A program made the position numbers and the translations under genes. A stretch of DNA of 64,000 nt from contig NC_087436.1 of NCBI RefSeq assembly GCF_036321535.1, positions 57,290,001 to 57,354,000 of the forward strand. Reading direction: 5' to 3'. The DNA is from Camelus dromedarius. Taxonomy: Eukaryota. This document shows, one piece after another, positions 15,234 through 64,000 of this stretch. Numbering within the stretch: the stretch's first letter is position 1; each line of letters starts with the position of its first letter. Below the pieces are notes generated by a model. The model was given only the letters and a program-made list of their open reading frames with translations. It was not told the origin of the DNA and did no database searches.

Positions 15234-15416
15234 CCTTTCTCTCTTTCTTTCTTTCTTCCTTTCTTCCTTTCCTTCCTTTCTTCCTTTCTTCCTTTCTTCC
15301 TTTCCTTTCTTCCTTTCTTTCTTCCTTTCTTCCTTTCTAAATGGAGGTACTGGGGATTGAACTCAGGACCCCATGCATGGGCTCTACTACTGAGCTGTAC
15401 CCACCCCCCTCCCCCA
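15234..15416 (-). mobile_element. Camelid tRNA(Ala)-derived SINE (vic-1-like) with a (CTTT/CCTT)n tail
   Basis: aatggaggtactggggattgaactcaggacc...actgagctgtaccc. The repeat ATCTATTTC at 15225-15233 and 15417-15425 is a probable TSD. Confidence 0.85.
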
Positions 15417-18949: not shown

Positions 18950-19753
18950 TCCATGTTTCTACTAACCTTCAGACTGTAGTAGTTATTATTTAACTGGATG
19001 TCTAGTAAACATTTCAAACTTAATATGTCCAAAGAGTTCCTGATCTGCCCACCAAAGCATCTTCTCCCACAGTATTCACCGTCTGAATAAATAACATCTT
19101 CATCATTCTAGCAGCTCACTCGAAAACATCTTGAGTCATCCCTGAATTCTTTTCTTGTCTCAAACTCATATCCAATTCATTCCATCAGTAAATCTATTGG
19201 CTTTCTATCATTAAAATGGATTCTAATTTAATCACCCGTTTACCACTCCATCATTATCATCTTGGTTCCAGTCACTATTTTCATCTGCCTGATTAGCCCA
19301 CTCTTGACCCTACTGTAAAATCTCATTCCAGCAGCCCAAAGACTCCTTTTAAATCCAGATTATATCATGTCATCCTTTTGTTCAAACCTTTCCCAGAGAT
19401 TAATTTCTCATGCACAGTAAATTTTATAATTTCTGAGAAGGCCCTAGATAGTCTGGTTCCTTCTCTCCTTCCTTTATTTCCCACAGCGGCCTCCTCTGGT
19501 TAGGCCCCAACAACCTGGCCTTCTTGCTTCTACAAGACTATACCACCATGCTGGCACTCCTTCTGTTCCCTGGAACATCCTTTCCCAGATAACTTCTGTT
19601 GTTCCCTTCAGGTTTTTATTGAAATCTCAACATCACAGCAAGGCTTTCCCTGCCCACCCCAGATGTGATTATCTCCTTCTGTCCATCCTTGGGCTTGCTA
19701 TCTTCCTTCTCTTGAATTTTCCTCCGTTTATCACCAACTGATACTATATCTAC

Positions 19754-19792
<39 letters not shown>

Positions 19793-19942
19793 CCTCTTCT
19801 GTATGTGTCCACTTTTTGTTTATCTCTACTCATTTCCTAGAATATAAACTCCATGAGAAGATTAACAACTTTTCTGTTCACTGCTGTATTCCCAGCACAT
19901 AGAACAGTGCCTGGAACCTAATAAGAACTCAATAAATGTTTA
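18950..19942 (+). mobile_element. L2 3' portion (~1 kb)
   Basis: ggatgtctagtaaacatttcaaacttaatatgtccaaa...ctagaatataaactccatgag...tgttcactgctgtattcccagc...ctcaataaatgtt. Confidence 0.9.
19747..19794. repeat. (TATC)n microsatellite
   Basis: Nine perfect units at 19755-19790 plus variant units. Confidence 0.97.
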
Positions 19943-26800: not shown

Positions 26801-27246
26801 GCCCCATATTCTAATACATGTCATCAGTCAAAAATTACATCTAATCAAGATTGGTTTGTCCTATGGCTGGTTGTGAGAACCCTGGTAGAAGGCCATAGCT
26901 ACTGAGAATTCATAGAAATTTTCTTGTCCAACTTTGTGAAAAATAAGCTAGTTGGTTGCCATATAAAGAATCTACTTATATATGCACTATGTATAGACTG
27001 ATATAGACGTCACCATGGAAATCACTGAAGTGAAGAACTTAACGAAAAATGTTGATGCAGTCTCCATGTTTTTCAGAACTATATTCACAGAAATATTTCT
27101 GAATGCATTTTAGTGACCTAGAAATCATGGCAGAGATCATGATTCATATCCAAATGAAACATGAGCTGAAAGAAAAGCTTCCTGTTGTAATTTTTCACTT
27201 TTAACTAAAATAGTCATACTTTTTTTTCTTTTAGATTACATGTCTA

Positions 27247-27304
27247 ATGGAAGCAACCTAAATGTCCATCGAAGGATGATTGGATAAAGAAGTTGTAGTG
27301 TGTG

Positions 27305-27382
<78 letters not shown>

Positions 27383-27852
27383 GGAATACTACTCAGTCAT
27401 TAAAAAAGAATGAAATAATGCCATTTGCAGCAACATGGATGGACCTGGAGATTGTCACACTAAGTGAAGTAAGCCAGAAGGAGAAAGAAAAATACCATAT
27501 GATATCCCTTATATGTGGAATCTTAAAAAAATAAAAAAGGACACAAGTGAACTTATTTACAAAAGAGAGGCAGACTCACAGACATAGAAAACAAATTTAT
27601 GGTTACCCAGGGGGGAAGGAGGTGGGGAGGAATAAACTGGGAGTTCTTGATTTGCAGATACTAACTTCTACATATAAAATGGATAAACAACAAGTTTGTA
27701 CTGTATAGCACAGGGAACTATATTCAATACCTTGTAATGGCCTATATTGAAAAAGAATATGTAAAGGAATATATATATGTATAAATGAATTACTATGCTG
27801 TACACCAGAAATTAACACAATATTGTAAATCAACTATACTTCAATTTAAAAA
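27247..27852 (+). mobile_element. Lineage-specific L1 3' end, 5'-truncated, with TSD and an internal (TG)n(TA)n repeat
   Basis: atggaagcaacctaaatgtccatc...aatcaactatacttcaat. TSD is TAGATTACATGTCTA (27232-27246) / TAGATTGCATGCCTA (27853-27867). Confidence 0.95.
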
Positions 27853-29811
27853 TAGATTGCATGCCTAGTTTTTAAAAGAACACTTAAAATATTACTTTGG
27901 TATAATCTCTTTGGTGAGACTATTGAGTCCAAATGCAATGAAGGTACCACAGAAGTTTATTAAACTTTGGTTTTTCCATGATACATCTCACATTCTGCTG
28001 TCAAATGCTGGCATAATTAACATGATACCAATTAATAACTCACTCACTTTTTTATTGAAGTTAAGCCTGTGATGATTACAAATGACATTCACTTTTTGTT
28101 CTTTAATTTTCCAAGTCTTTATTTCCTTACTATCTTATCTTTTACTAACATAGTCCTGGCAGCTTTTTTTTTTCCTTTATTGTTTATTAAAAAAAAATTA
28201 CTGGGTAAGGTATAAAATTTCCTTTCCTAGTTTCACTCCTTCCACTAGAAATGCCATTTCCAGTTCCTTTCACTGCCTGAAGTTTGTATTCCTGAGGGTG
28301 AAGTACAAGTTGTGGGGGAGGAGGGGAATAAATAAATGAAAAGTAAAATAAAGTTAATATTCTAATTGATACTTTGATCTTCTTAAAAATTCCCAGTACA
28401 TCAATGCAACTAGTGGAACAATATTTTTCATGATCAAACAGAGGTTTCCAACCATGCAGGGATGGATAAGAGTCTAGAAAGAGACTGAATGACCAGAAGA
28501 AACGGTAAGAACAAAGGACTTTCATTGCAAGTGTCTTTCATTGTGTAAGAGCAGGTAGCAAATATAGAAAGATAAAAAGTTGGATATTTGGAATTTCAAA
28601 TTTTTGAGGAGGATCCAAGCTGACAAGATTCAGGATTAGTCCTGGGAATGAGTGGAAATTAATTCATTAAAATTGCAGAGATCTAGATACTGTCTGAGTG
28701 CTTGGATGAGTCATTGACTTAGATGTATAAATCTTGATTATCACTCGCTTGAAGTTAGACAGCTAGTAACTGCCTGAGTTAGGATTGCAACTCTGGAGCC
28801 TCCCATTTTAATTCGTGTGTGCCTTTACTTGAGGACAATGCAGTCATGCTATGATATGGGTGGTGAGGAATCTGGAGAAGGATAAACACCTCTTGTCCTG
28901 CTGCTCGTGAAAGATGAGAAAATGAGCTTCCTCCACTGGAGAAAGATGCAATGTGAGAGACGCTCTCAGTGCTGAGTTATAGTCCAGATAAATCATCCTG
29001 CAGAAATATTGAGGAAATAGGGGAATTTACCTACAATGGAAGGAGGATTCAGAAGATTTTCAAAAGAGTTGGAAAGAAGGATATAAAAATTATAATAAAA
29101 TCAAGGGTAGACTATTTTTTTGCTTTCCCATGAAACTGGAAAATTCCGGGGAAAATAAGAAGAAAAAAAAATAAAGAGGAATGGAAAGAACAGAAAGACA
29201 AGTATGAGGAAAAAGTGGCGACAAGTCACATGAGCTGTGTGTTGTTCACAGGAACGCCAATTTTAAACAAACCCAAACACAAATATATTTTATTTATCTG
29301 AATATCATGATCACCTATTTTGCCACCTCAGAGCTGCCAGAGCACATTTCAGAATTCTTTTCCTGGCCCCTCATAAGCTGGTACGCAGCTGGACAGCATT
29401 TGTGCTCCAACAAGAATACACAATTCCTGCTTCTGAGATTTTGCATATGGTACATGATACATCCTCAACATTTGTTGAATCTGAATCTAAATATCAGTTG
29501 ATTAAACTCTCTGCTTATTTTTTTTGTTTGGGGAACTGGATAAGGAGGTGATGGTGAGGGGAGAGGTAGAAAGTTAGAAAAGAGTAGGGGAAAAAAAAAG
29601 GAAGACCAATGCTGACTGAGACCAATTGATTCCCACCTATCCCTGGAGTGTGCTCCACTTCTACAGAAAGCATGGAAGAATTAGAATGAAAGAAGACATC
29701 TGAAAATAAAGACAGAAATATGCAATATAGTCTCCTTCACCACGATATGCCTTACGTGGAAATGCTGATTTTCAAAAAGAAAATGATTTATTAAAATTAG
29801 AATTTGCTGCA

Positions 29812-29967
29812 GGGGAGGGTATGGTTCAGTGATAGATCATGTGCTTTGCATGCACGACGTCCTGGGTTCAATCCCCAGTACCGCCATTAAAAAAATAAAT
29901 AAGCCTAATTGCCTCCCCCCACCCAATAAATTAATGAATAAAAAGAAACTACTGCTTAAAAAAAACG
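29812..29967 (+). mobile_element. Camelid tRNA(Ala)-derived SINE (vic-1-like)
   Basis: ggggagggtatggttcagtgatag...tcctgggttcaatccccagtaccgcca followed by an A-rich tail. TSD ATTAGAA(T/C)TTGCT at 29796-29808 and 29968-29980. Confidence 0.9.
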
Positions 29968-36969: not shown

Positions 36970-37058
36970 AATTTATTTGTTTCTTTAATTGTTTATTTAA
37001 TGGAGGTACTGGGGATTGAACCCAGGACCTCATGCATGCTAAGCACGTACTCTACCAG
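36970..37058 (-). mobile_element. Camelid tRNA(Ala)-derived SINE (vic-1-like)
   Basis: aatggaggtactggggattgaacccaggacctcatgcatgctaagcac...; TAATCATATA is repeated on both flanks. Confidence 0.9.
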
Positions 37059-37429
37059 TGCGCTCTACCCCTAGCCCCTGAATAATCATATAATCGTCTT
37101 GAAAATGGTTTTCTACTACTTTTCAATTTAGAGTCATTCAGTTGCCATATGCAGTACCACATTTTTCAAATAAGAATGAGTAGTTTGCTGTCTTGTGGAG
37201 GTATGTTATGCCAACTGCTGTAGAATTGTGAATGCTTTTTACAATTAATGTTTTTCCCAATCAGAGGAAAATCCTCAAATTATACCAAAATAATCCTTTA
37301 AATACCAGTGGTACTTTAGGGCATTTGATTTGACTTCATAAATAAGAAGAAATATGATTGTCTTGTACAGTTTTTTTTTCCTTTAACAACTGGGTGAAGC
37401 ATCTACAATATTCATAAGAAAGTCATTCA

Positions 37430-45189: not shown

Positions 45190-48100
45190 AATTTTACCAC
45201 ATGTGTGAATTCATACAACCATCCTCACAATCAGGATGCAGAATAATTCCACCACTCTCCTTGTTTAAAGTTGTTCCTTTTCTTATTGTTGGGTTTTGAG
45301 AGTTTCTTATGTGTTCTGCACAGATATATGTTACTGGATATATGATTTGCAAATATTTTCCTCTAGTCTTTACTTTGTCTTTTCATTCTCTTAATGATAT
45401 TTTTTTCAGGGCCAAACTTTTAATTTTGATGAATTCCAATTTGCCAATATTTTTCTTTTATAGAGCACAGTATTAGTGTTGATTCTAAGGATTCTTTGCC
45501 TAACCTTTTCTCTTATGTTTCCTTCTAAAAATTTTATAGTTTTATGTATTATATTTATATCTCTAATCCAATTTGGGTTAATTTTGCCATAAAATATAAA
45601 GTCTAAGTTGGGTTTTTTTTTTAAACAGATGAATATCCAATTGTTCTGACATGATTTGTTGAAAACATCATCTTTCTCAATTGAATTAACTTTGCATCTT
45701 TGTGAAAAATCAATTGACCTTAACTGTGTGGGCCTATTTCTGGGTACTCTATTCTGTTCCATTGATCTATGTGGCTATCCTTTTGCCAAAACCACAATTT
45801 ATAGATTAAAATACTGTTATAACAATTCTTAAAATCAAGTAGTTTAAATCTTGCAATTTTATTCTTCTTTTGAAAAATTTTTTTGGCTCTCCAAATGCCT
45901 TTGCTTTTCCATGTAAATTTAGAATCAGTTTGTCTATACCTACAAAAATTCCTGCTTGGATTATTATGTTAAATCTGTACATCAATCTGAAGAACAGTGA
46001 CATGTTAACTACTTTGAATCTTTCAGTCCACAAACGGGGTATGTTTCTCAGTTTATTTAGGTTTTCTTTGATCTCTCTAATTAATGTTTTGAAGTTAGAT
46101 TTATTCCTAAATATTTCATTTTTTCAAACTATTATGAATGCTATTTTAATTAAGAAATTTGAGCCTCCAATTGTTCATTGCTGGTGTATACAAATATGAT
46201 TGATTTCTGTGTGTTGTGTAACCTGCAACTGTGCTAACCTTACATAATAGTTCTAAGAACCTTTTTGTTGATTCTATGATATTTTTAAAAAATATACAAG
46301 CATGTCATCTGTAAATAATGACAGATTAATTCTCACCTTCCAATCTGCTGTCTTGCCTTATTGCACTGGCAAGGACTTCCAGTACAATGTTGAATATGAG
46401 CAGTAAGAGTTAACAGTCTTGCCTTATTCTCTGTCTCATAGGAGAAACCATTCGTTGTTTAACCATGAAGCATATTGTTAGCTATAGGTTTTTTGTAGAT
46501 GCCTTTTATCAGGTTAACACAGTCCCTTCTCTATTCCTGCATAACTTTTATTATGAAGAGATAATGAATTTTGTCAAATGCTTTTTCTGCTTCAGCTAAT
46601 ATAATTATATAGGTTTTCTTCTTTTGTCTGTTAATATGGTGGATTATCTTGATTGATTTTCAAATATCAAATGAGTCTTTAATTCCCAGGACAAATTTCC
46701 CTTGGTCACAGTGTATTATTCTTTGTATATGTTTTGATTTGTTAGCATTTTGCTGATTATTTTTCTGTCTATATTCATGAAGGATATTAGTCTCTAGTTT
46801 TATTTTCTGGCAGCATCTTTGGTTTTGGCATCAAGGTAATGCTGGATGTGATTATCTTAGTGAATATCCCTTCTATGTTTGAGAAAATATGTAATCTGCT
46901 TTTCCTGAGTCAGACGTTCTATAAAAGTCAGTTAAATCCAATGGATTAATGGTGCTATTCAGTACTTCTATTCTTAAATTTCCTCTGTCTACTTGTTCTA
47001 TCAATTACTGAGAAAGGAACGTTGACATTTCTAAGTATAATTGCAGATTTGCCAATTTTTTTCTTTCTTTTCTATCAGTTTTGGCTTTATGTATTTTGAA
47101 GTTCTGATATTTGGTTGTATACATTTAGGATTCTTTATGTCTTCTTGTAAATTTAACCCTTTTATTATTACATAATGTTTCTCTTAACCCCTAGTAATTT
47201 TCCTTTCTTCATAGTCCCCTGTGTCTGATATTAATATAGCCACTGAAGCTTTCTTTTGATTAGTGTTTGCATGGTATATCTTTTTCCATTCATTTATATT
47301 TTACCTCCCAATATCATAATATTTAAAATAGATTTCTTATAAGCAATGTTAATAATAGTTAAGCCTTTAATAATCATTCTGACAACTTCTGTCTTTTAGT
47401 TTATCTTCTTGAACTACTTATATTTAATAAAATCATTGATATGTTTGGAATTAGATCTACAATTTTGTTACCTGTTCTCTTTCTATTCCTTTTGTGTTTT
47501 GCTCCTGTTTCCCCTTTACTGCTTTCTTCGGTTTATTTGTATATGTTTAATGATTCCAATTTATCTATTGAGTTTTTTTTACTGTCCCTTTGTATAGTTT
47601 TTTGTTTTTTTGTTTGTTTGTTAAGGGTGGCTGTAAAGATTACAATATATGTATTTAACTTTTCACTGTATACTTAGAATGAATACTTTACTATTTCAAG
47701 GAAAACGTATAAAACTCCTATAGGTTCTTTTACCTACACCATCCATGTTGTAATTGTTGAATGTATTACTTCTATGTACATTGAAAAGCCAATCAAGACA
47801 ATGCTTTTTGAAAGCAGTATTTTTTGCTTTTTACAGACATAAATATTTGAAAGAACTTAGAAGAAAAGAATAATCTATTACATTTATCTAGCTTCTACCA
47901 TTTCTGTTACTTTCCTTCATTTCTAAAGTTCCAAATTTCCCTCTTGTATTATCTCCCTTCTGAAGTCTGAGAAAGTTCCCGTGGCATTTTTCAGAGCAGG
48001 TCTGTGGTGATAAATTCTTTTATTTTTCCTTCATCTTAATATTTCTTTATTTCTCTTTTATTTCTGAAGGATGTTTGCACCGGATATTCTCTGTTGACAG

Positions 48101-49840
48101 TTCTTTTCTGAAGCACTTGAAGATTCCACTTGCTTCTTACTTGCATAGTTGGAAGTAATGATAAACCCAGTCATTGAAATCACTGTTACGCTAAAGATAG
48201 GATACAGCTTTTCTCCAGTTGCTTTCGGGCCTTTTTTTTTTTTTTTTTTTTTTTTGTCTTATTGTTCAGCAGTTTGATTATGATGTACCTGGGCACTGAT
48301 TTCTTTTCTTTAAAATGATCATGTCTGGAGTTTACTGAGCTTCTAGAATCTGTGTCTTTTGTCAAATTTGGAAAGTTTTCAGCCATTATTTTTCTAAGTA
48401 TTTTTTATGTTCCATGTTCTTTCTCATCTTCTTTTGGAACTCTGATGACAAAACTCAGACCTTTTGCTATTGTTTTATAGGCTCCAAGGCTTTGTTCACT
48501 TTTTTACAACTTTTTTTGTTTCTGTTATTTAGGTGATTTTTGTTGATCCACTTTTAAAGTTTGCTGACTTTTTATTCTGTTACCTCCTTTTTGCTGTGAA
48601 ACCTGCTTAGTGGGTATTTTTTGTATTGACTATTTTAAATTGTATTTGGTCCTTTTTTATGTCTTCTATTTCTTTGCTGAAGTTTCTCATTTATTTCAAG
48701 TGTATTCTCTCTTACTTCTTGAAATATGGTTATAATAGCTTCTTTGCAGTCTTTATTGGATAATTACAACATCTGATCATCAGATCATCTGTTGATTTTC
48801 TTTTCCCTTGTGGGTTCAGTTTTTCCTGATTCTTTATATGGCAAGTACTTTTAATTGTATCCAAAGTTGAATAGTAGTTTGACCCTGGGCTTTGCTTAAA
48901 TCTTAAGAAGAAAGCTGATTTTTTGTTTGTTTCAACAGACAAACAGGTTAAAGATGGAGACTCCAAGTTTTGATTTGTCCCCTTTGGTTTGTGGTCCAAA
49001 TATCATTCAGGTTTTAAAGTATTTGTAGTGCTATTAAGATCAGTACCAGGTAAATGCCAGTGGCCAGTCTGGGACCTAGACAGTGGTCTACCTTGTAACT
49101 CCACTGTCAAAGCAGGTGGTATGCTATTTAGAGTCAGATCCATGCATGCACAGCTCTTAGGTCAGCCCAGGAGTCCGTGTACAACTTTATGAGTCTCATT
49201 TCTTGATTTTTCTTTTCACCATGATCTCCCCCAACACGTTCTGGCTCCCACAGACCTCCCTTTCTGGTCCTCTGTACAGAAAACTAGGACTTCAGTTTTC
49301 TTATCTGTCATGTTCTTCTGCAACTGTGTCTGCGTATACTGCCTAGCAGCAAAAGGACAGAGAAAGAATAAAAATAATGAGGATTCACTCCATACTCCCA
49401 TGACCATAGCTCTCTCATTATAGAAAGATACTTCACTCATTCAGAATTTTATGTGCCTCCCTGGCCACGACCACCATCTGAAGGCTAGGACGGGAGAAAG
49501 GAAAAATAATAATTTAAAAGTTTTAAAAGCAGGGAATGTGCTCTTTTCTCTGACCCGTGAGATTCCTCTTTTCCACAATCTCTTTCTCAGAAAGAGAGAG
49601 ATTTTCTTAAAGTTTTTTGCTTCTCAATCATGCACACTTCTGGAGTTAGAGCCTCCCTTGAGTTTATGCCAGTGATACTGGAGGGAAAAAAAATAGGGAA
49701 CTCACCACTGGTTTGGTGTAACCTCAAATCCTAGCTTTTTTCCTACAGTCTTCCTGCTAAAATTTTCTCTTCAGCATCTTCATATAGCTGCTTCCGTATT
49801 TACACTTGCATTCAGGGCAGAGTGTGCTTAATTCTTCCTT
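45190..49840 (-). mobile_element. Old L1 (~4.6 kb, internally deleted) with ORF2, ORF1 and 5' region remnants
   Basis: ORF-track remnants are L1-like: 45406-45762 (DVFNKSCQNNWI...KINPNWIRDINI, ORF2 C-terminal half), 45806-46033 (MYRFNII...IDKLIL) and 48186-48386 (MAENFPNL...PRYIIIKLL, ORF1). Confidence 0.92.
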
Positions 49841-51250: not shown

Positions 51251-51503
51251 AAATCTTAGGCAAAATGGGTCCGTCCACCTGAATTGTGAATTGAGCCACA
51301 ATTTCACAATGAAAAATATTCCCAAAGGAGAGATTATCAGCACTTTAATATATTTGTCCCACTGTGCAATGCTAACTAAAATTGACTGCTACTTAATCTT
51401 GGAGATGATTGATTTAGCCATAAATGATACATGCAGTGATTATTTATCACTATTTTTGCTCCTTCAAGAACACAGAAAGAAATTCTATTGTATCAAGATC
51501 CAT

Positions 51504-52885
51504 GTTTGATAAAAGAGACGAGAACATAAAATGAAGTAAAGACAGTCTCTTCAGCAAATGGTATTGGGATAACTGGACAGCTGCATGTAAATGAAGTTAG
51601 AACACTCCCTCACACTGTACATAAAAATAAACTCACAATGGCTTAAAGACTTAAACATAAGACAAGACTCTACAAAACTCTTAGAAGAAAACATAGGCAA
51701 AACATTATCTGACATAAATCTTAGGAATGTTCTTCTAGGGAAGTCTACCCAGGCAACAGAAATAAATAAAAAATGAACAAATGGGACCTAATTAAGCAAC
51801 AACAAAAAAAACTTTATAAGCTAAACAAAAAGACAACATGCAGAATGAGAGAAAATATTTGCAAAAGATGAGACTGAAAGAATATATAAACAGCTCATAC
51901 AACTTAATAAGGAAAAAAAAAAAAAAACTAATCCAAAAATGGGCAGAAGACCTAAACAAGCAATTCTCCAATGAAGACATAAAAATGGCCAATAGGCACA
52001 TGAAAAAATGCTCAGTATCGCTAATTATCAGAGAAATGCAAATCAAAACTACAAAGAGGTACCACCTTACACCAGTCAGGATGGCCATCATTCAAAAGTT
52101 CATGAACAATAAATGCTGGAGAAGATGTGGAGAAAAGGGAGCCCTCCTACACTGCTGGTGGGAATGCAGTTTGGTGCAGCGATTATGGAAAACACTATGG
52201 AGATTCTTCAAAAGACTAAAGGCAGACTTACCATATGATCCAGCAACCCCACTCCTGGGGATATATCCAGGGGAACTTTAATTCAAAAAGATACATGCAC
52301 CCCAATGTTCATAGCAGCACAATTTACAATAGCCAAGACATGGAAATGACCTAAATGTCTATTGACAGATGACTGGATAAAGAAGCTGTGGTATATTTAT
52401 ACTATGGAATACTACTCAGCCATAAAAATAATAAAATAATACCATTTGCAGCAACATCAGTGGACCTGGAGATTGTCATTCTAAGTGAAGTAAGCCAGAA
52501 AGAGAAAGAAAAATACCATATGATATTGCTCATATGTGGAATCTGAAAAGAAAAAAGGGAAACAAACTTATTTACAAAACAGAAACAGACTCACAGACAT
52601 AGAAAACAAACTTATGGTTACCTTGGGGGAAAGAGGGTGGGAAGGGATAAATTGGAAGTTTGAGATTTGCAGATACTAACTACTATATATAAAATAGATA
52701 AACAACAAGTTTCTTCTGTATAGCCCAGGGAACTATATTCAATATCTTCTAGTAACCTATGATAAAAAAGAATATGAAAATGAATATATGTATGTTCATG
52801 TATAACTGAAACATGCTGTATGCCAGAAATTGACACATTGTAAACTGAGTATACTTCAACAAAAAAATATATATAGCAAAAAAAA
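51504..52885 (+). mobile_element. Lineage-specific L1: ORF2 C-terminus, 3' UTR and A-tail (5'-truncated, frameshifted)
   Basis: ORF-track peptides 51591-51776 (LTLYIKINSQWLKDLNIR) and 51838-52281 ([19 protein letters not shown]...HCWWEC) are L1 ORF2p C-terminal motifs. Confidence 0.97.
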
Positions 52886-53229
52886 TCCGTTTTTTAAAAA
52901 ATCAGATATTTCAGTGAATGTCTAAGGATCTATTTGCTAGGAAAAGTGTGATCTGTCCTGGAATTAAGTAAAATGTCAAGCTTCATCTCCAAAAGCTTGG
53001 GCCAATGTTTTCTGTATCTCTGAGGGAATATATCCATTTAATTTAATGACCTCTGAGTAAGTTCACTTTATAGAGTTAAATCACAAAAGGGTACTGATGT
53101 TAGATGAATTCATGTTAGCCCCTAATTCCCAGAAATCCCCAGTGTTCTTTCATAAATAACACTTTTCACCTGCAAAGCACTATGCCATTTATAATTTCTC
53201 CCCCACGAAATCTTTTATATTTAAGACTA

Positions 53230-53570
53230 TACTCTAAGTAGCCCCAGCTTTCTTCCATGGTAGGTTCATGCTTCCTGACCTCTCTGTGATTGAATGGGGC
53301 CAATGAATTAGGAGTAGAAGTGATGTGTGTCAGCTTCAAGCAGATGATGTGATTACCTCCAGATCTTTCTTTCCCTCTGCATCTGGTTTCTAGCAATATT
53401 TGAGATGATGGCCACTGTGTCATTCTGGTTTCTTAAGTATCACAAGCTAAGCTCTAACAGACCTGTTGCTTTGTATTATGAATAAGAAATAAAATTTTGT
53501 TGCTTAGGTCACTGAGATTTTTGGTCTTATTTGTTACCACAGCATAACCTGGCCTTATCTGACTGACACA
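53230..53570 (+). mobile_element. MLT1 LTR
   Basis: gtagaagtgatgtgtgtca...aagaaataaaattttgttgc...actgagatttttgg...ttgttaccacagcataacct...gactgacaca. Confidence 0.8.
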
Positions 53571-53689
53571 TACATGATTCTCATGTTTTATCTTATTATA
53601 AAAATATTTAATATATAATTCATATATACATACAAATACATATGTAAAAAAATATATATATATAATATATATCTTATATATGATCTTAC

Positions 53690-53865
53690 ATGATTCTCAC
53701 AATAACCCCTGAGGTAAAAAGCTCAAATTTAATGGTTCTTTCCCCTTTTATAGATAAGGCTACTGAGGCTCAGAGCAGTAAATACTTTGCTCCACATACA
53801 CAGAACCAATAAGTGAAAAAAACTCACAATGAAAATTAGATTTATTGACTTCACATTTACTGTTC
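53690..53865 (-). mobile_element. MIR SINE
   Basis: ctcacaataacccctgaggta...tttatagataaggctactgaggctcagag. Confidence 0.75.
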
Positions 53866-54060
53866 TTTTAAAAGATATAACTCTAAACACAGAAAGAACC
53901 TTCCACTTCTAATTCTTGACAGAAACATTTTCAACTTGAAAATTTTCAAAGTTGAATATTGTATGTCATAATTTATATTAAAAATATCCTAATTCACCAG
54001 AATATTTCATGTCATCCCACATCTCTGAAAATTTGCTGTCATTTGTGGGGTTTTGTCTTG

Positions 54061-54887
54061 TTTTTAAACCTTTTTTTTAAAATTGATGTACAGTCCATTT
54101 ACAATGCTGTGTCAATTTCTGGTGTACAGCACAATGCTTCAGTCATACATATACACACATATATTTGTTTTCATATTCTTTTTCAGTATAGGTTGCTATA
54201 AGATATTGAATATAGTTCCCTATGCTATACAGAAGAAACTTGTTTATCTATTTTATATCTAGTAGTTAGTATCTGCAAATCTCAAACTCACAACTCCCAT
54301 TTTACCCCTTCCCATTCCTTTCCCCCCTGGTAACCATAAATTTGTCTTCTATGTCTGTGAGTCTGTTTCTATTTTGTAAATAAGTTCATTTGTGCCTTTT
54401 TTTTTTTCTTCTTAGATTCCACATATAGGTGATAACATATGGTATTTTTCTTTCTCTTTCTGGCTTACTTCACTTAGAATGACAATCTTCAGATCCATCC
54501 ATGTTGCTGCAAATGATGTTATTTTATTATTTTTTATGGCTGAATAATATTCTATTGTTTAACTATACCACAGCTTCTTTATCCAGTCATCTGTCAATGG
54601 ACATTTAAGTCATTTCCATGTCTTAGCTATTGTAAATTGTGCTGCTATGAACACTGGGGTGTATGTATCTTTTTGAATTAAAGTTCCCCTGGATATATCC
54701 CCAGGAGTGGGGTTGCTGGATCATATGGTAAGTCTGCCTTTAGTCTTTTGAAGAATCTCCATAGTGTTTTCCATAATCGCTGCACCAAACTGCATTCCCA
54801 CCAGCAGTGTAGGAGGGCTCCCTTTTCTCCACATCTTCTCCAGCATTTATTGTTCATGAACTTTTGAATGATGGCCATCCTGACTGG
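54061..54887 (-). mobile_element. Lineage-specific L1 3' end, inverted relative to the 51.5-52.9 kb copy
   Basis: Same family as the plus-strand copy; ORF 54678-54899 repeats the same ORF2 C-terminal peptide. Confidence 0.97.
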
Positions 54888-54965
54888 ATTGAGTGTCACA
54901 GTCTTTTAATTGATCAGAGTAGCCATGAGATAGAGAATACAGGAAGGTAATAAGTGTCACTTTTT

Positions 54966-55042
54966 AAAGTACATACTTTGAAACGATGAACAGTACATAT
55001 ATGTAAATTTTAAAAAATAAATAATAAAATACATACTTTGAA
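54966..55042 (+). mobile_element. ~43-bp A-tailed micro-insertion with a 17-bp TSD
   Basis: AAA(G/A)TACATACTTTGAA at 54966-54982 and 55026-55042, preceded by TTTTT. Confidence 0.75.
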
Positions 55043-56045
55043 CTAATGGCTGTGTTTGCATAAACTTTTTTTAATGTTTATTCAAACAAAGTAGAGCCTT
55101 GACAACACTAACCTTGTGTTCATAATCTATCCCTTTGACAGTCTAATGTTGTGAAGCCCCATTCTCTTGAACGAGGAAATCACACACCAGTTCATCCCTT
55201 TCAGGAAAATGTACCTTAAGAGATTTCTCAAAGCAACATGATTTACACAGAGTTGAGGTTAGAAAAAACATCAACAACAATGAAACCTTACCAACGGTCT
55301 GGGGTTTGGTGTGTGAACAGAACTGAAAAAAGTTGTCAGGCCTGGATCTTTCAGGACTCCATATTTCTGAAAGCCTACACCCTGTAAAACTATTCTGGAG
55401 CAATTATTAACCACACAATGAGCCTGCGAGACAGCAGATGCTAGGCTCCCCTTTCCCTCCCTTTTCCCCTCCTCAGTCAAACATATTTGTAGAGTACATA
55501 TTTATCTACTTAAAAAAAGAAGAAAAAACCCTGTCACCTCCCTTCTAACAGGAAGTAAGCAGGACTTCTCCTCATAGGCTCTAAAAATATTGACAGTAGA
55601 TAATGGGCCTGTATAAGATACTGGTGGGAAGTGAGTTAATAATCACAGGCTCCAACTGCAGGGAGCTTCAGATGCTGCCTAAAAGCAGACGGCAATGAAT
55701 ACTGTTTTTGTTAATAGCTAGCTGGTGACAGAAAGCTCTTTCAACCTTGCTTTACTGGAAGTGGAAGACACAATACCAGAGAAATATATAGTAATAAGAG
55801 ATACCTATATTATTTAGATCCATGAATTAGTTGTTCACAAATATAAGACAGAAGTAAGCATCGTCTCTATGAGAAAAAGGTTTATTAAATTTATCTAAAT
55901 TAATATACAATTAGCAGTAATTATGACTATTGGAGGATGAAACTCTCTTTTTTAAACATTGCAAGAAAGTAAACTAATTTAGCCCAAAACTATTACCTAA
56001 TTTAATGAAATATCTAGAATATTTTTTCTTTTAAAAATGTCACTA

Positions 56046-56174
56046 TACCTGTAATGAAAAAGAATCTGAAAAGGAATATGTATATACATTTGTATAACTG
56101 ACTCACTGTGCTGTATGTACACCAGAAACTAATACAACATTGTAAATCAGCTACACTTCAATTTTATAAATGGC
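56046..56174 (+). mobile_element. Short L1 3' tail with TSD
   Basis: gtataactgactcactgtgctgt...caccagaaactaatacaacattgtaaatcagctacacttcaat. TSD AAAAATGT(C/T)ACTA at 56033-56045 and 56175-56187. Confidence 0.9.
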
Positions 56175-57159
56175 AAAAATGTTACTACAGTTCAATATTC
56201 TTATAAGCCTTCGATGTTGGAACGTCTCAGGAACCTAAGAAATTTTCATATAGCCTAAGAAGATCAAGTAATCTTCTCCCAGAATCAGAGCTCTTTTAGG
56301 GAGAGCTGGGGATGTTCCTTAAGACAGATGATCTATCTACATTTCCTTAGAAATTAAACTTTCAAAGGAGGCAACCACACTCTGAAAATACATTTAATCC
56401 TCCTGCTAAAGCATAAATCTTTACTGCCCTTCTGTATAAAGCAAACTGAAAAGATATGATGCATCATTTTCTGTAATGATTAACCCCCTGTTTGCCAGCT
56501 GTCCTGGAGAATACCTCTAGACTTGAGCAGGCATTAAGCAACCTCAGGTCCTACAGGTGCAAATCCCTTCTGCAAGTTTTGAAGCAGCTTTCTCTCTCTC
56601 TCCCCCTCCCTCCCTCCACCCCTCCTTTCCTCTCTCCCTCCCTTCTCCCTCTCTCTTCTGATTTCTACAGGTATTATTATTTTAACCAAATATCTTATGC
56701 ATTCATTCATTTTTTACTTATGGAGTACAATTTGAAATTATTTAAATCTTCTGTTGTCTGTGAAACGTATAATGGTGAAACCATCAGTTAGGGATGAAAC
56801 TAGTTTACTGTCAAAAAATTCAGAAGGATCCAGTGAAAGGATCAATTACCTTGGTAAACTTCAGGACACAGTTCTGAATGGTTCATTTCATTTCCTCTAT
56901 TGTTCTTTATAAACGGCCTGCAAACCAGTTTACAAGCATGATGAGAAATTATTCCCATCAATTGAAGACAGAGTCTTTGGGAGAATTTCATTTATTGCCT
57001 AGATGAAAATGAACTGAAGGGAAACAGAAAGAACGGAGGATTGTTTTTAGAGAGAAATTATCCTGAAAAGTATATTGTTTAGTGGCTATTTGGTGTTGAA
57101 AGCAGCAACACGTTCTTTGGGTTGCAGTCAAGGTGAACTTGAAAAAGATGTTCCTTGAA

Positions 57160-58210
57160 GCCTGTTCCTTGAGTCCTGCAGGCCGGCGGAGGTATCCTTC
57201 TGAGAAAAGCCGTGTCGGTGAGCTCCGATGCTCAAGATAATGGGAGTATTAAGTGAAGGTTACTATAGCAAGGTGCCTGTCCGGGGAAGAATTCTGACCG
57301 CAGAAGAAATAGAGATCTCTGACTCTTGATCAAGCAGATGAGCTGATGCTGACCTGCATCAGTGATCCCGAGTTGATTAACCGAGATTAGGAGGCAAAAG
57401 TCGACAGCGCAGCCACCGAAACACTGCTGGGTATTTTTGTCTGGAGAAAGCGGGGAGGGAAAAAGAATAGGGGAGAAAAAACGCAGGGAGTTCACAGTGA
57501 CAGGAGATCCAGTTTCCCCTGCTCTCTCCTCCCCCCTGCACCTCCCGCCTCTGCTCCCTTCCCCTGCCAGGGTTAAGGGACCAAGCCCGCAGCTGCTCCT
57601 ACAGGAGGCGCTGCAGATTTTTCCATCTTTGCAAGATGTTAACGAGCAGCAGCCCCCGCCTCGCCGCTGGGAGGAAGCGGTGCTGTCCGCTCGCCAGGCA
57701 GCGAGGCGGCTGTTCGGGTCTTGCCCTGACTGTAGGAGGCGAGAGGCCAAGAAGGCTGAACCCGAGGACTGCAGAGCGATGAGGCTAGGGCTGTGTTGGC
57801 AAAGGAGCAGAGACGCGAAATAAAACCACTAGCTAAGAAGGATCAGTACTGGGAACCGAAGGTCGAGGGCGGGTTGGGGCAGAAAAAAGTGGGAAAGGGA
57901 CCAAGGGATGACGCAGGGCTGGGGGCAGTGGAAGGGAAAAGCGAAAGAAGAGGTTGAATGAGGAGCCCTCGAGAGCTAATGAAAAGGAAGGGAAGATGGT
58001 GTGCAGGAGGGAATAATGGTCTAGAAAAGAAAAGTTGAGAGGCAAGGTGAGGGGGAAAGAAGATAAAAAGGCAGGTCGGTGGCCTTCCGGGGACCGCGTG
58101 GTGTGATCGGAGCGGCGGCCTCGCGTCCTCAGGTCCCCACCGCAGCTTTCCAAGTCTGGCCTCCAGGCATTGGTCGTTCCAGATAACCCCTGGAAAGGCG
58201 TATTGGGGAT
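57160..58210. promoter_or_regulatory. CpG-enriched region; candidate alternative promoter or enhancer
   Basis: Sharp rise in GC and CpG over the AT-rich background, no recognisable repeats, and GC-box-like motifs (cccgcc at ~57545 and ~57655, gggcgg at ~57867). Confidence 0.7.
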
Positions 58211-60349
58211 CTCTAAGCTCAGATACAAAGGTGAATAAGACCTTGCCCTGACTCCAGCGGCTCATGGAGGGTTTATGGAAAAGCTCTTCCTAAATAGTTT
58301 CAATGGCACTTGTTAAAAGGACCATTGGAGCACAGAGCTGGGAGCACTTACCTCAGCCTGGGGAGTGCAGGGGTTAGGAAAAAAGTTAAAGAAGGGCAGG
58401 GACAACCTGTTAGAAAGGCCTTGTAGGAGTTTTCAAGATAGAGAGAGGTTCTGGTGTTGGCTGCAATCACTTTAATGAGTCTATCTAATTCAGAGAGACC
58501 GTGAGACAAGGAATTCTGTGGCCCGTAGAGCACTTAGAGGCCTGGGTGACCTTGATTCTCACGTCTCTCTTCCCTGGGCATTATCTGTTTACAACTGGGA
58601 CAGTGGCAGAGTCAAAGGAGATATTGGTTCCTACCCTCAAGTGTCTGGCCCTTTAAAAATAAATTAGCAGTATCCATGGAATATGTGGAACTTTGCTTCA
58701 GGTTCCAGGAGAAAAGGAAAAAAATGAATCTTTACTAGACCTTAGAGGACTAAGGAGGCACCAGGAAGGAAGTGAGCTCAGAGGTGAAAGTAGAGTTTTG
58801 AGGACAACCCCTACTTAGTAAGTGAATTATTTCCTTCTTTATTTTCCAGGAATGTGAGGGTTGGGAGGGACCTACTGAGAGGAACCTGCATTTAAAATGC
58901 CTAGCACGTGGGAAAGTGCCCAAGAGACTCTCCCCAAAAGACCCAACTAAATGACTCCTCCCTTTCTATAGCCCTGAGCAGCCAGGGCTCCCTCATTAAC
59001 ATAGTCTTTGACTGAGCAACACCGAAACAAAGCCAATGTCCTTGAGTTGAGTAGGTCACACCTGTCTTTGTTGATAGCAAAATGGACACCGTGCAGGGAC
59101 AAGCAGAGACACATACAACAAAATATTGGGAAAGTAGCCTCTTAGCTAACACCAGTGAATTCCTTCGGGTTGTTTTCAGAGTAAGGCTAAATGGAAAAGA
59201 GCCTTTGTCACAGCTTTGAACTCCCTTTCTGGATATAGGAGTCATATAGACAGTCCAAAATAGTGGGGAGAAGTTTAGCATGGTGGGTCACATGATACTA
59301 TAACACGGGACATGTTAGGAGGCAGTCTGGGTTTAGGTCTTGGCATAAAGGGCTCTGAAATAAATCCTTATGAGCTGTCCTGGGATGTGGGTGGGAAAGA
59401 GCAGTGAGGGGTGCATAGCCTGTGGGGAAATATCTAGGCTCGACAGCAAGCACAAAGTTTATTTCTTGGTCTTAAAATGTGGCCCATGTAACTGCTTGCA
59501 AGCATTCCTTTTTGATTAGAAATATTTTCTGTTTTTCAAATACTCCCTACTCTCCACTTCACTCCTGAGGAGAGGGGGTTGTGAAAGCATCCAAGTCACA
59601 AGCAATACAGAAGAGATTGCCTTAAACCAATGAATAGAAAGAACTGTAATAGAGTCCTGATTCGTGATAGGTAGAGAACAGAATTTCTAAAACAAAGAGG
59701 TATTTTTTTCAGACATTAAACTGCTCAGGCAGTGGTAAACGTTTACTTGGAGAAAGGTTTGAGAGGAAAAAGCCAATAGCTCAGATGACCAAGCAAATAA
59801 AAAATGCATGTTATCACTGAATGAATACACAGCTACAAATGTAGCAGGTTAATTTACTTCACCCTTGGAAAGAAACAATAAAAATTATAGCCCAACTTTC
59901 TTAACCATCCTTACAAGCATTGATGGAGTGACAAATATGGGAAATGAACTGCTTCGGGGTCATTACTCTTCAGGACACACTTTCACGTAACAGTCTTTTG
60001 TCTCATTCCCTAACCTACATGTGTATTTAGTATTTGGATGGATTTTTCCAGATGAGAGCAGAAGTGAATTTCTATACAGAATAAGAGACACTCATGTCCA
60101 GTATCAGTTGAATCAGAGGAGCAAAGCTGACATCTGAAACGAAAGTGTTTCTAACCAGGTACTCTTAAAACTTACCACCTGGAATTGGAGTCTGGTCCAT
60201 GGCCATTTGCAAAGAATGATCTCTCTCTGGAACAAATGTATACTGAAAGAGTGTAGGAATCTCCATCACCAACAGGCTTGACTAAGAATAGGAGGAGCAG
60301 GTGTAAGATGGCTGGCTGTGAAGATAGACATCTGAAGCAGGTGAAATGT

Positions 60350-61484: not shown

Positions 61485-61529
<45 letters not shown>
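61485..61529. repeat. (TATC)11 microsatellite
   Basis: Read directly from the sequence. Confidence 0.97.
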
Positions 61530-62679
61530 CAAAATGGGATTACTAGCCAGTGTCCATTTCTATAGGCAATCTCAAGAAGAGGTCTAATAGAGACTCCTGT
61601 AGGTCAGTCCGTGGCTCTACTTGGGTCAGATTCACCTGGGAATCCTGTAGGAAGCCTCTTGGCTTTCTTCTTTGACCTGCCAAATCAACATCTTTTGGGT
61701 TATAAGAAATTTTCAGAAAAAAAAAAAGTATCCTGTACATTTCTGCTAGGCTGTTTCCGGAAGCAGATACATGTTATTAAAAGGGAAAAGAACTGACTTG
61801 CCACTTTCCTGGTCAACCAGTGGCCCTATGTTTTCAGATCTTAGTTTTGTGGCTTTTAAGATATAAAGGCCGCAAATGACACCTGCTCCTTCCTGAAATG
61901 CCAACTCATCCATCACCCCTGCCACACAATGAGAACTCCTCCCAACCCTAGGCCTTCCCCCACCAGCATCTCATCACCAAGAGTTTGTAGGGGCAGGAAG
62001 GAAGAACTGTCTCTAGAAGAGACAAGTAAGTGACTAGTGGCCCCAAAGAGCATCTGTTGGCTTGGAAAACCCCAAGACAGCCACCTCAGATCCTAACTCA
62101 TACCTTCCTTAGTCATCCTGACAGTAACTGGGCTGAACCTGCCAGCCATCAGAACGCATTTCCTTCATCAGATCACTGAACCGCTTAACTTTTTAATCAG
62201 AATTGTTAAAACTAAAAAAAACCAACCAAACAAACAAACAAACAAAAAACCCAAAACCAAAACCAAAACCCCAAACTTATATTAGAGAGCAGCTTGTTTT
62301 CATGCCTATGGAGGAAACTTCTGGTTTCCCTGGGGGAACTCATGAGGCCTGGCCTTCCTGCAGATCAGGCAGCAAAAACCAGTTTTACTTGCCTTTTGGT
62401 TTTGAAGCAGGACTTAAATAGGGAGAAGAATTCTGGGATATAGAGAGGCCTCAAATCTTTGTACCAAAATGCTTAGTTCTGCTTTTCTTTTCTTAAGGAG
62501 CTGAAGGAAAGTGAGTCATACACGTGTCTGAGCCCTGGATTGTGGGAGACAGTGCCCGTGCTCTGTTGTCAATTAAAGTTGAAACTAATTTTAACAGCAT
62601 CCACATATAGAGAGAATATGGGATATTTTAGAATAAGGGAGGGACTGGAGAACTGTATCTAGCCTGCAAATGTGAGTGG

Positions 62680-63270
62680 ATCTTCCACCGCAAGCCCTGG
62701 GCCGAGTAGTCGCGCAGAGCGTTTGCAAGGCCCCTGCGCGGGAGGATGCGCCTGCTTCCCTGTCCCGGTTCACTGCTTCAGGTGCCTCAGTCCCCAGCCC
62801 AACTCTTCCCGGGCGACCCCTCAGCTCGCCTGCCGCCGCCGCCTCCAGCTTCCCCTCCCCTTGGCATTGCTTGGCTTTAACTTTGCGCGGCTTCTTTTCT
62901 CGCCGGGCTGGTTGCCGGGAGGTGCAGTGGGCAGTGGCGGCTCCCGCTGCGAAGCCGGGGGAGGAGAGGGGCCGGGGCCGGGAGCGGGAGGCGGCGAGAG
63001 ACGCTCGCTTCTGTGAGTTCTGCCGGTGGGGGGCCGAGGAAGGCTGTCGACGAGGAGGAGGCCGGGGTGGAGGAGGCCGGGGAGGGGTGATGATGGTGTT
63101 AAATGTGGCCGCGCTGCTCCCCGGGGAGCTGCCTGAAAGGAGAGTGCGCTCACCAGCTGACAGCGCGTGCTCCGCTCCAGACGCTCCGCACCGCGGCCAG
63201 GAGCCTCTGCCAGCCCCTCTATTGTCAACCGCTCTCTAATTAAGAAACACTCACATTACGGCAAACCACC
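62680..63270. promoter_or_regulatory. CpG island promoter
   Basis: Very high GC and CpG density, with GCC runs and G-tracts. AP-1 (TGAGTCA, 62512) and E-box (CACGTG, 62521) motifs lie just upstream. Confidence 0.85.
62820..63012 (+). other. Probable non-coding first exon of an unidentified gene; start position is a guess
   Basis: GC-rich, ATG-free, 5'UTR-like text ending at the donor TCT|GTGAGT (GT at 63013). A second donor CTG|GTGAGT has its GT at 63467. Confidence 0.45.
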
Positions 63271-64000
63271 CCCACGCTTCTTGGTTCCTGTCCTTTTCTT
63301 TATCTTCCCCCAGACTTCTCTCCTCCCCTGCCTCTGCCTGGCGTCCCAGGATTTTAACCCATTCTCCTCTCCATTCGCCTTTTCTTGTTGGTGGCCCAGC
63401 AGAAGGGGAGAGACCTCAGTGGTCGGCGGCTGGAACTCTGCTCAGCCTAGGGGTTGAGGGTGGCTGGTGAGTGCGGGGTCCAAAACAGCGAGAAAAAGCG
63501 TTACCTTTTTATAACTATCCTCCTCACAAAACTAACTAACTGCAAGCGATTCAGCTGCTAGAGGTAGTCTTTAACTCTCACTAGTACTTGCTGGTTTTTC
63601 CAGATTGCAGATGATGAGTCTAGACTGCAATTGCCAAATGGGTCTGCTACTTTTACTTTCCAGCTCTAACTGGGCTTTGGAACTGCCCAGAAGTTGATCA
63701 CCTGTTTCTTGAACATTCAAATGAACAGAGAAGAGAAATAATTACAAGACACCCTTACATGAAAGACTACTTACTTGGTTAAGGTTTAAGTCTCTAAAAT
63801 CAATAGAAAGGCCTAGTGAAAGCTTTGGTCCTGTGTTGGTTAAGATTCTTTTTCTTTTTTTCTGGTCAAGCTGGGCCCCCAGTTAGCAAGGTCCCATGGA
63901 GAAGAGTTTAAACTTGCCTGTTGTCAAAAAGCCTCTTCCTTCAGCTTTCTGTGAAATCAAATAAGTTTCAAAAAGTGTGATGAGCCAAAACCCTCCACAA

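Follow-up and report, generated by a model that had tools for sequence, protein, structure and literature searches.

In a 64,000-nt stretch of the dromedary (Camelus dromedarius) genome, hereafter the window, we identified two 5'-truncated and decayed L1 fragments, copies A and B, which lie tail to tail with about 1.2 kb between them (Table 1). The translation of copy A has relatives among ORF2 C-terminal sequences with up to 78% amino acid identity and E-values down to 1e-71. Its LINE-1 identity is indicated by 6866 of the 8000 scored candidates, which matched at E <= 1e-20; one relative is named DUF1725, and others, from peccary and horse among other species, are named for the reverse transcriptase zinc-binding domain. 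Both ends of copy A are uncertain by 10-20 nt, the 5' limit being set by alignment to an older L1 at 45.4-45.9 kb. A-runs terminate both A and B, following a 3' UTR that they have in common with two further L1 fragments of the window, copies C and D. When aligned in inverted orientation, A and B match over 809 columns at 89.6% identity, the strongest self-match within the window. The spacer between their tails is not repeated elsewhere in the window according to self-BLAST, and none of its three open reading frames of at least 58 aa matches Pfam.

Table 1. Coordinates of the L1 copies, the identical tract and adjoining features (window positions)
Feature	Position	Strand	Remarks
Copy A	51495..52885	+	last ~1 kb of ORF2, 3' UTR to ~52860, interrupted A-tail
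Identical tract, copy A	52072..52296	+	225 nt of ORF2; 1 nt deleted near 52275-52285; private residue changes
Shoulder of copy A, putatively partly homogenised	52297..52395	+	pairs with about 54564-54662
Unconverted 3' part of copy A	52396..52860	+	11.7% diverged from B (54/460 columns differ)
Spacer between the two 3' tails	52886..54070	.	~1.2 kb, without coding match
Copy B	54071..54887	-	shorter 5'-truncated L1 of the same family as A, tail to tail with A
Identical tract, copy B	54663..54887	-	ends at B's 5' junction
Outer flank of B	54888..54909	+	20 nt ending in TTTT, then AA; target-site-like
Copy C, third L1 3' fragment	27247-27857	+	target-site duplication 13/15 (27232-27246 and 27853-27867); control
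Copy D, short L1 3' end	about 56047-56170	+	target-site duplication 12/13; 1.2 kb right of B and inverted relative to B; control

Comparison with copy C over 52341-52860 gives 23 A-specific and 26 B-specific sites, and with 44 shared differences A and B are nearer each other than either is to copy C; they probably represent a single subfamily. The similar numbers of private sites meant that deducing the direction of copying from decay rates had to be dropped. The possibility that B is an old inverted duplication of the 3' end of A was rejected, because the 3' flanks of the two copies are unrelated (p = 0.67). About equal decay outside the identical tract, together with unrelated 3' flanks, is consistent with two independent insertions.

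In the assembled sequence, 52072-52296 and 54663-54887 are perfect reverse complements of each other (225/225), as a previous sequence-only reading of this DNA had claimed, and the bases just outside the tract mismatch at both edges, the first inner mismatch being at 52297. Outside the tract A and B differ in 59 of 559 aligned columns (10.6%). Exactly 11 of these mismatches were counted in the next ~125 bp, where about that number had been noted before, and the alignment contains the indels in the 3' UTR that had been noted with them. At the background rate the chance of 225 straight matches is (1-0.106)^225 = 1.3e-11; when 59 mismatches were placed at random over 784 columns, no run of 225 arose in 200,000 simulations (longest run, 179), which excludes chance as the source of the inverted identity. 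The next longest exact A/B run elsewhere, at 53 nt, is ordinary (P = 0.12). Local identity thus lies above the paralogue background, as is required of gene conversion (0/225 versus 59/559 differing columns). The outer edge of the tract is the point where the L1 homology of the minus copy stops (54887), so the earlier observation that the tract terminates at the 5' end of that copy stands. Degenerate L1 homology past 54887 was considered and rejected, since the flank, when aligned in anchored fashion with copy A over 15, 25 and 40 nt, scored p = 0.63, 0.04 and 0.26, with only one of the three lengths nominally significant.

All of the damage inside the tract, a frameshift and private residues, is common to both copies. 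The tract departs from the relatives in 11 of the 61 columns where at least 80% of them agree, as compared with 5 of 40 in the 5' part of copy A, and four of the 11 departing residues were seen in none of the ~120 aligned relative rows, although these relatives may not be of the host family and single residues could be subfamily states. The frameshift is due to a 1-nt deletion, which leaves 26 nt where 79 of 99 informative relatives carry 27 (nine codons); this count is based on the 141 of 238 proteins that have the anchoring motif and enough following sequence, with 42 that lack a Cys in range left out. The frameshift is unlikely to be a subfamily state. Because frameshift and private residues are found in both copies, the tract appears to have been transferred after decay had begun, and the private damage means that shared descent from an active source fails as an explanation. 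Shared derived changes within the tract, a further criterion for gene conversion, are thus represented by the 1-nt deletion and the four residues, and they support the earlier proposal that the two L1s exchanged sequence after insertion. That proposal would have been undermined if unrelated family members were equally identical over the tract; at the protein level they are not, the best relative reaching 79% (119/120 aligned).

Adjoining the tract on its inner side is a shoulder with 5 mismatches in 99 columns, all of them transitions, versus 54 in 460 further in (Fisher p = 0.049, with the boundary picked post hoc). At 52320 A and B share a Gln, and at 52347 a stop codon, which occur in 0 of 44 and 0 of 27 relative rows, respectively. 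These data hint that the shoulder goes back to an older conversion that has since aged, which would be the simplest reading; it is possible, as a rival to an older round, that a single patchy event produced it. Earlier homogenisation had been suggested from the sequence ggaaatgac, which is indeed common to both copies where the 27-kb copy has ggaagcaac. The shoulder supplies a second marker, with a nominal p of 0.049, and the suggestion is still a weak one; we take it as a hint of repeated rounds of copying at the A/B pair.

Ages were calculated with two alternative rates, one of which is 2.2e-9 substitutions per site per year. The other, 5e-9 per site per year, corresponds to the 2.5e-8 substitutions per 5-year generation given in PMC8605555. 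These rates yield an upper bound (95%) of 1.3-3.0 My for the age of the perfect tract, and ages of about 5-12 My (range 2-26) for the shoulder and 13-29 My for the A/B background divergence. The copying event would accordingly be recent, probably falling within roughly the last 1-3 My.

The flanks of the copies were compared in an anchored test for target-site duplications (TSDs), which detected those of the controls, copy C (p = 0.02) and copy D (p = 0.035). The best of the four pairings of the A and B flanks is the weak A5'/A3' match (p = 0.18). Copy B has no TSD at its own 3' end (B5'/B3', p = 0.66), in agreement with the sequence-only reading and in contrast to both controls, and swapped TSDs were not seen (A5'/B3', p = 0.98; B5'/A3', p = 0.90), so that B is without a TSD in either pairing; the test is a blunt one, as one unrelated pairing also gave p = 0.05. 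The 20 nt outside B end in TTTT/AA, which we take to be the shape expected of an L1 target site. Under a strict definition 2.4% of random positions, and under a loose one 12.9%, are followed by such a motif at a distance of 8-22 nt; with up to five mismatches allowed, neither tail contains a match to the 20-mer. The motif speaks slightly for 54887 as the original truncation point of B, with the 3' copy of the TSD lost or never made, whereas the missing TSD speaks for a new junction; these opposite hints roughly offset each other.

Some smaller repeats surround copy B. At its 3' tail a 13-nt near-tandem duplication (54057-54081) might record a rearrangement that removed the 3' TSD. The right flank (54888-55045) contains direct repeats about 60 nt apart, an 8-mer near 54892/54953 and a 13-mer near 54970/55031, which are possibly due to chance. 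The 8-nt repeat was considered as a templated insert and judged, with no formal test, to be a chance match.

The A/B tract is a real feature of the assembled sequence and very probably records a recent copying event, and real copying after insertion, when all readings of that kind are taken together, is highly likely. As for the form of this copying, we give an even chance to short-range non-allelic gene conversion or template switching between the neighbouring inverted L1s. Under this reading, A and B would have been inserted independently from one L1 family and would have decayed separately to a difference of about 12%. Being inverted and 1.2 kb apart, they could pair within one chromatid, and a break or stalled fork near the 5' end of B, or in the matching part of A, would be repaired by copying the neighbour via strand invasion or fold-back template switching, followed by a return to the original template, presumably without crossover. 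In this way 225 nt would be overwritten, and if B already reached 54887 before the event, as seems likely, copying would halt at its 5' end because the shared homology stops there. A nascent strand that runs past the end of homology would be trimmed as a flap. An earlier event of a similar kind probably extended inward by about another 100 nt. The conversion reading must assume either a separate loss of the TSD of B or a TSD-less insertion, as no TSD was seen for this copy.

Non-allelic gene conversion between neighbouring Alu elements was reportedly described by Aleshin and Zhi in 2010, as cited in PMC8230782 and PMC6598467. The A/B pair resembles that system in that the copies lie within 10 kb, are about 89% identical and share a partial tract of a few hundred bases; unlike it, the elements here are L1s, they are inverted and they reside in a non-primate mammal, and the published cases were polarised with orthologues whereas the A/B pair is known from one sequence. 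Gene conversion of transposable elements is raised within about 10 kb (PMC8230782; PMC6598467), has its optimum at 89-100% identity and is often partial (PMC8230782), and mammalian conversion tracts usually measure a few hundred bp (PMC3961182). The distance, identity (89%) and tract length of the A/B pair fit published conversion of transposable elements. Inverted Alu pairs are under-represented in human DNA (PMC3670932), which points to interaction between the members of such pairs, and PMC4888836 makes only a general statement on long-tract gene conversion. The A/B tract adds one more case to a known process that has been reported in primates for both Alu and L1. Our search of the literature, mostly outside subscription journals, found nothing on the A/B locus or on inverted L1 conversion in camelids.

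An alternative, which we consider unlikely though the strongest of the remainder, is that B was extended: a shorter or broken B would have primed on A in the shoulder, copied 225 nt outward and been end-joined to the right flank, by either one-sided invasion or a four-point-type fold-back template switch. In the one-sided invasion model, copying is ended by end joining, and the A/B pair is similar to its product in that one junction is homologous and the other lies where homology ends. Extension would explain why the identity reaches the very last L1 base, after which homology ends abruptly, and why B has no TSD while both control L1 fragments have one; the shoulder, as the most similar unconverted part, would favour priming. 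The TTTT/AA motif 20 nt outside B argues against it by suggesting an original insertion junction. With regard to the fold-back route, template switching is known to perfect imperfect inverted repeats (PMC8755829; PMC8604942), and human events, as recorded in haplotypes, can reach 318 bp, which favours this route, but average only about 12 bp (10.1101/2021.11.26.470150). As described there, template switching or quasi-palindrome correction removes the differences between the arms of an imperfect inverted repeat and can lengthen these arms, as would be needed here; in contrast, the published events are mostly about 12 bp, with short arms and spacers, and the A/B pair has arms of about 800 bp and a spacer of 1.2 kb. 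One sequence alone does not separate conversion from fold-back extension, and with orthologues the A/B locus would provide a single-locus test of conversion versus templated extension. Four exact look-ups of orthologous translations gave no hit, the best of 1341 matches to the frame that spans the junction has 78% identity, and DNA copies of the A/B L1 family were not found in metagenome contigs (two patterns), viral contigs or prokaryote genomes.

It is rather improbable that non-allelic homologous recombination of A with B inverted the interior, leaving the 225 nt as the conversion tract at the crossover and both copies chimeric. Inverted L1 pairs do cause inversions, the oppositely oriented A and B bracket the segment as required, and a clear TSD of its own is missing from A as well as from B. 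According to PMC2603318, 21 of 252 human-chimpanzee inversions are L1-mediated, and the 49 retrotransposon-mediated inversions have a median size of 1452 bp and include 12 with deletions, which could erase a TSD. The published mark of L1-mediated inversion is a pair of exchanged TSDs (PMC2603318). The published events as presented there are like the A/B pair in having oppositely oriented L1s around a kilobase-size spacer, but they involve mostly younger L1PA elements of higher identity, and the A/B pair, in which no TSD swap was seen, is not classed here among L1-mediated inversions. The sequence-only reading had offered inversion breakpoints as one explanation, and the TSD-swap comparison (p = 0.98 and 0.90), itself a weak test, lends this no support; the sole weak TSD match is the uninverted A5'/A3' pairing (p = 0.18), and a crossover alone would not make the tracts identical.

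Improbable as well is an assembly, gap-filling or polishing artefact, in which reads of A filled or corrected the 5' part of B, or the reverse. Perfect identity of two repeats within mate-pair distance is, on general grounds, the expected product of such an error. On the other hand, reads of A and B should normally be separable at about 10% divergence, the window contains no N, and the shoulder combines shared damage with five real differences, unlike a collapse. The region itself is real and widespread: 20 of the 24 listed runs (10 studies, two organism labels) contain 0.90-0.93 of the sampled 52900-60000 words, a measure that is blind to the short junction and to which copy A also contributes words of the tract.

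A more elaborate scheme, in which we have very little confidence, is a ratchet whereby repeated fold-back copying would produce divergence stepped inward at 0%, 5% and 12%, each round easing the next, until relics 12% diverged had become a perfect inverted repeat. The 2.4-kb interior would then flip again and again, and living animals would be polymorphic for its orientation, at a distance of about 2.4 kb from a CpG-rich region. The absence of any exchange, with the tract identical by chance, by constraint or through the same defective source, is extremely improbable: A and B do share 44 differences from copy C, but the simulations never yielded such a run, the tract is frameshifted and more damaged than the 5' part of A (11/61 versus 5/40), and with a common source the divergence would be uniform along A and B.

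If the copying is real, the pair is a neat natural illustration that L1 relics with about 11% divergence go on exchanging sequence as long as they are close and inverted. Tracts of this kind also give old copies a young appearance and can conceal small inversions from short-read data. The A/B tract opens no new mechanism, has no evident function and is linked to no gene or phenotype.

The remainder of the window contains other repeats and few coding signals. Copy C carries a compound microsatellite, (GT)n(AT)n, at about 27297-27380, which interrupts the end of its ORF2. An older L1 relic occupies about 45400-48400 on the minus strand, with ORF2-like frames at 45.4-46.1 kb and an ORF1 match to Transposase_22 at 48189-48404; its ORF1 and ORF2 remnants are nearer each other than in an intact L1. 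A 65% match links 57-385 with 46476-46793. Among 230 open frames of at least 58 aa searched against Pfam, with the frames over B, the 3' part of A and C left out, the L1 ORF1 domain at 48.2-48.4 kb was the one match above the cut-off, and no host coding exon was recognised. Two CpG-rich regions, 57000-58000 and 62000-64000, have a GC content of 0.50-0.53 and a CpG observed/expected ratio of 0.47-0.60 and are without Pfam match; both are probably promoters or first exons of a gene. A short SINE-like family, presumably tRNA-derived, is represented by three copies, at about 15325-15385 (-), 29817-29902 (+) and 36985-37070 (-); TSDs can be seen by eye in two of the three, and the tail of the 15.3-kb copy is a purine-rich tandem repeat. 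Finally, 19747-19796 and 61485-61530 are tetranucleotide-type repeats that match over 45-46 nt at 96-98% and are most likely independent microsatellites.
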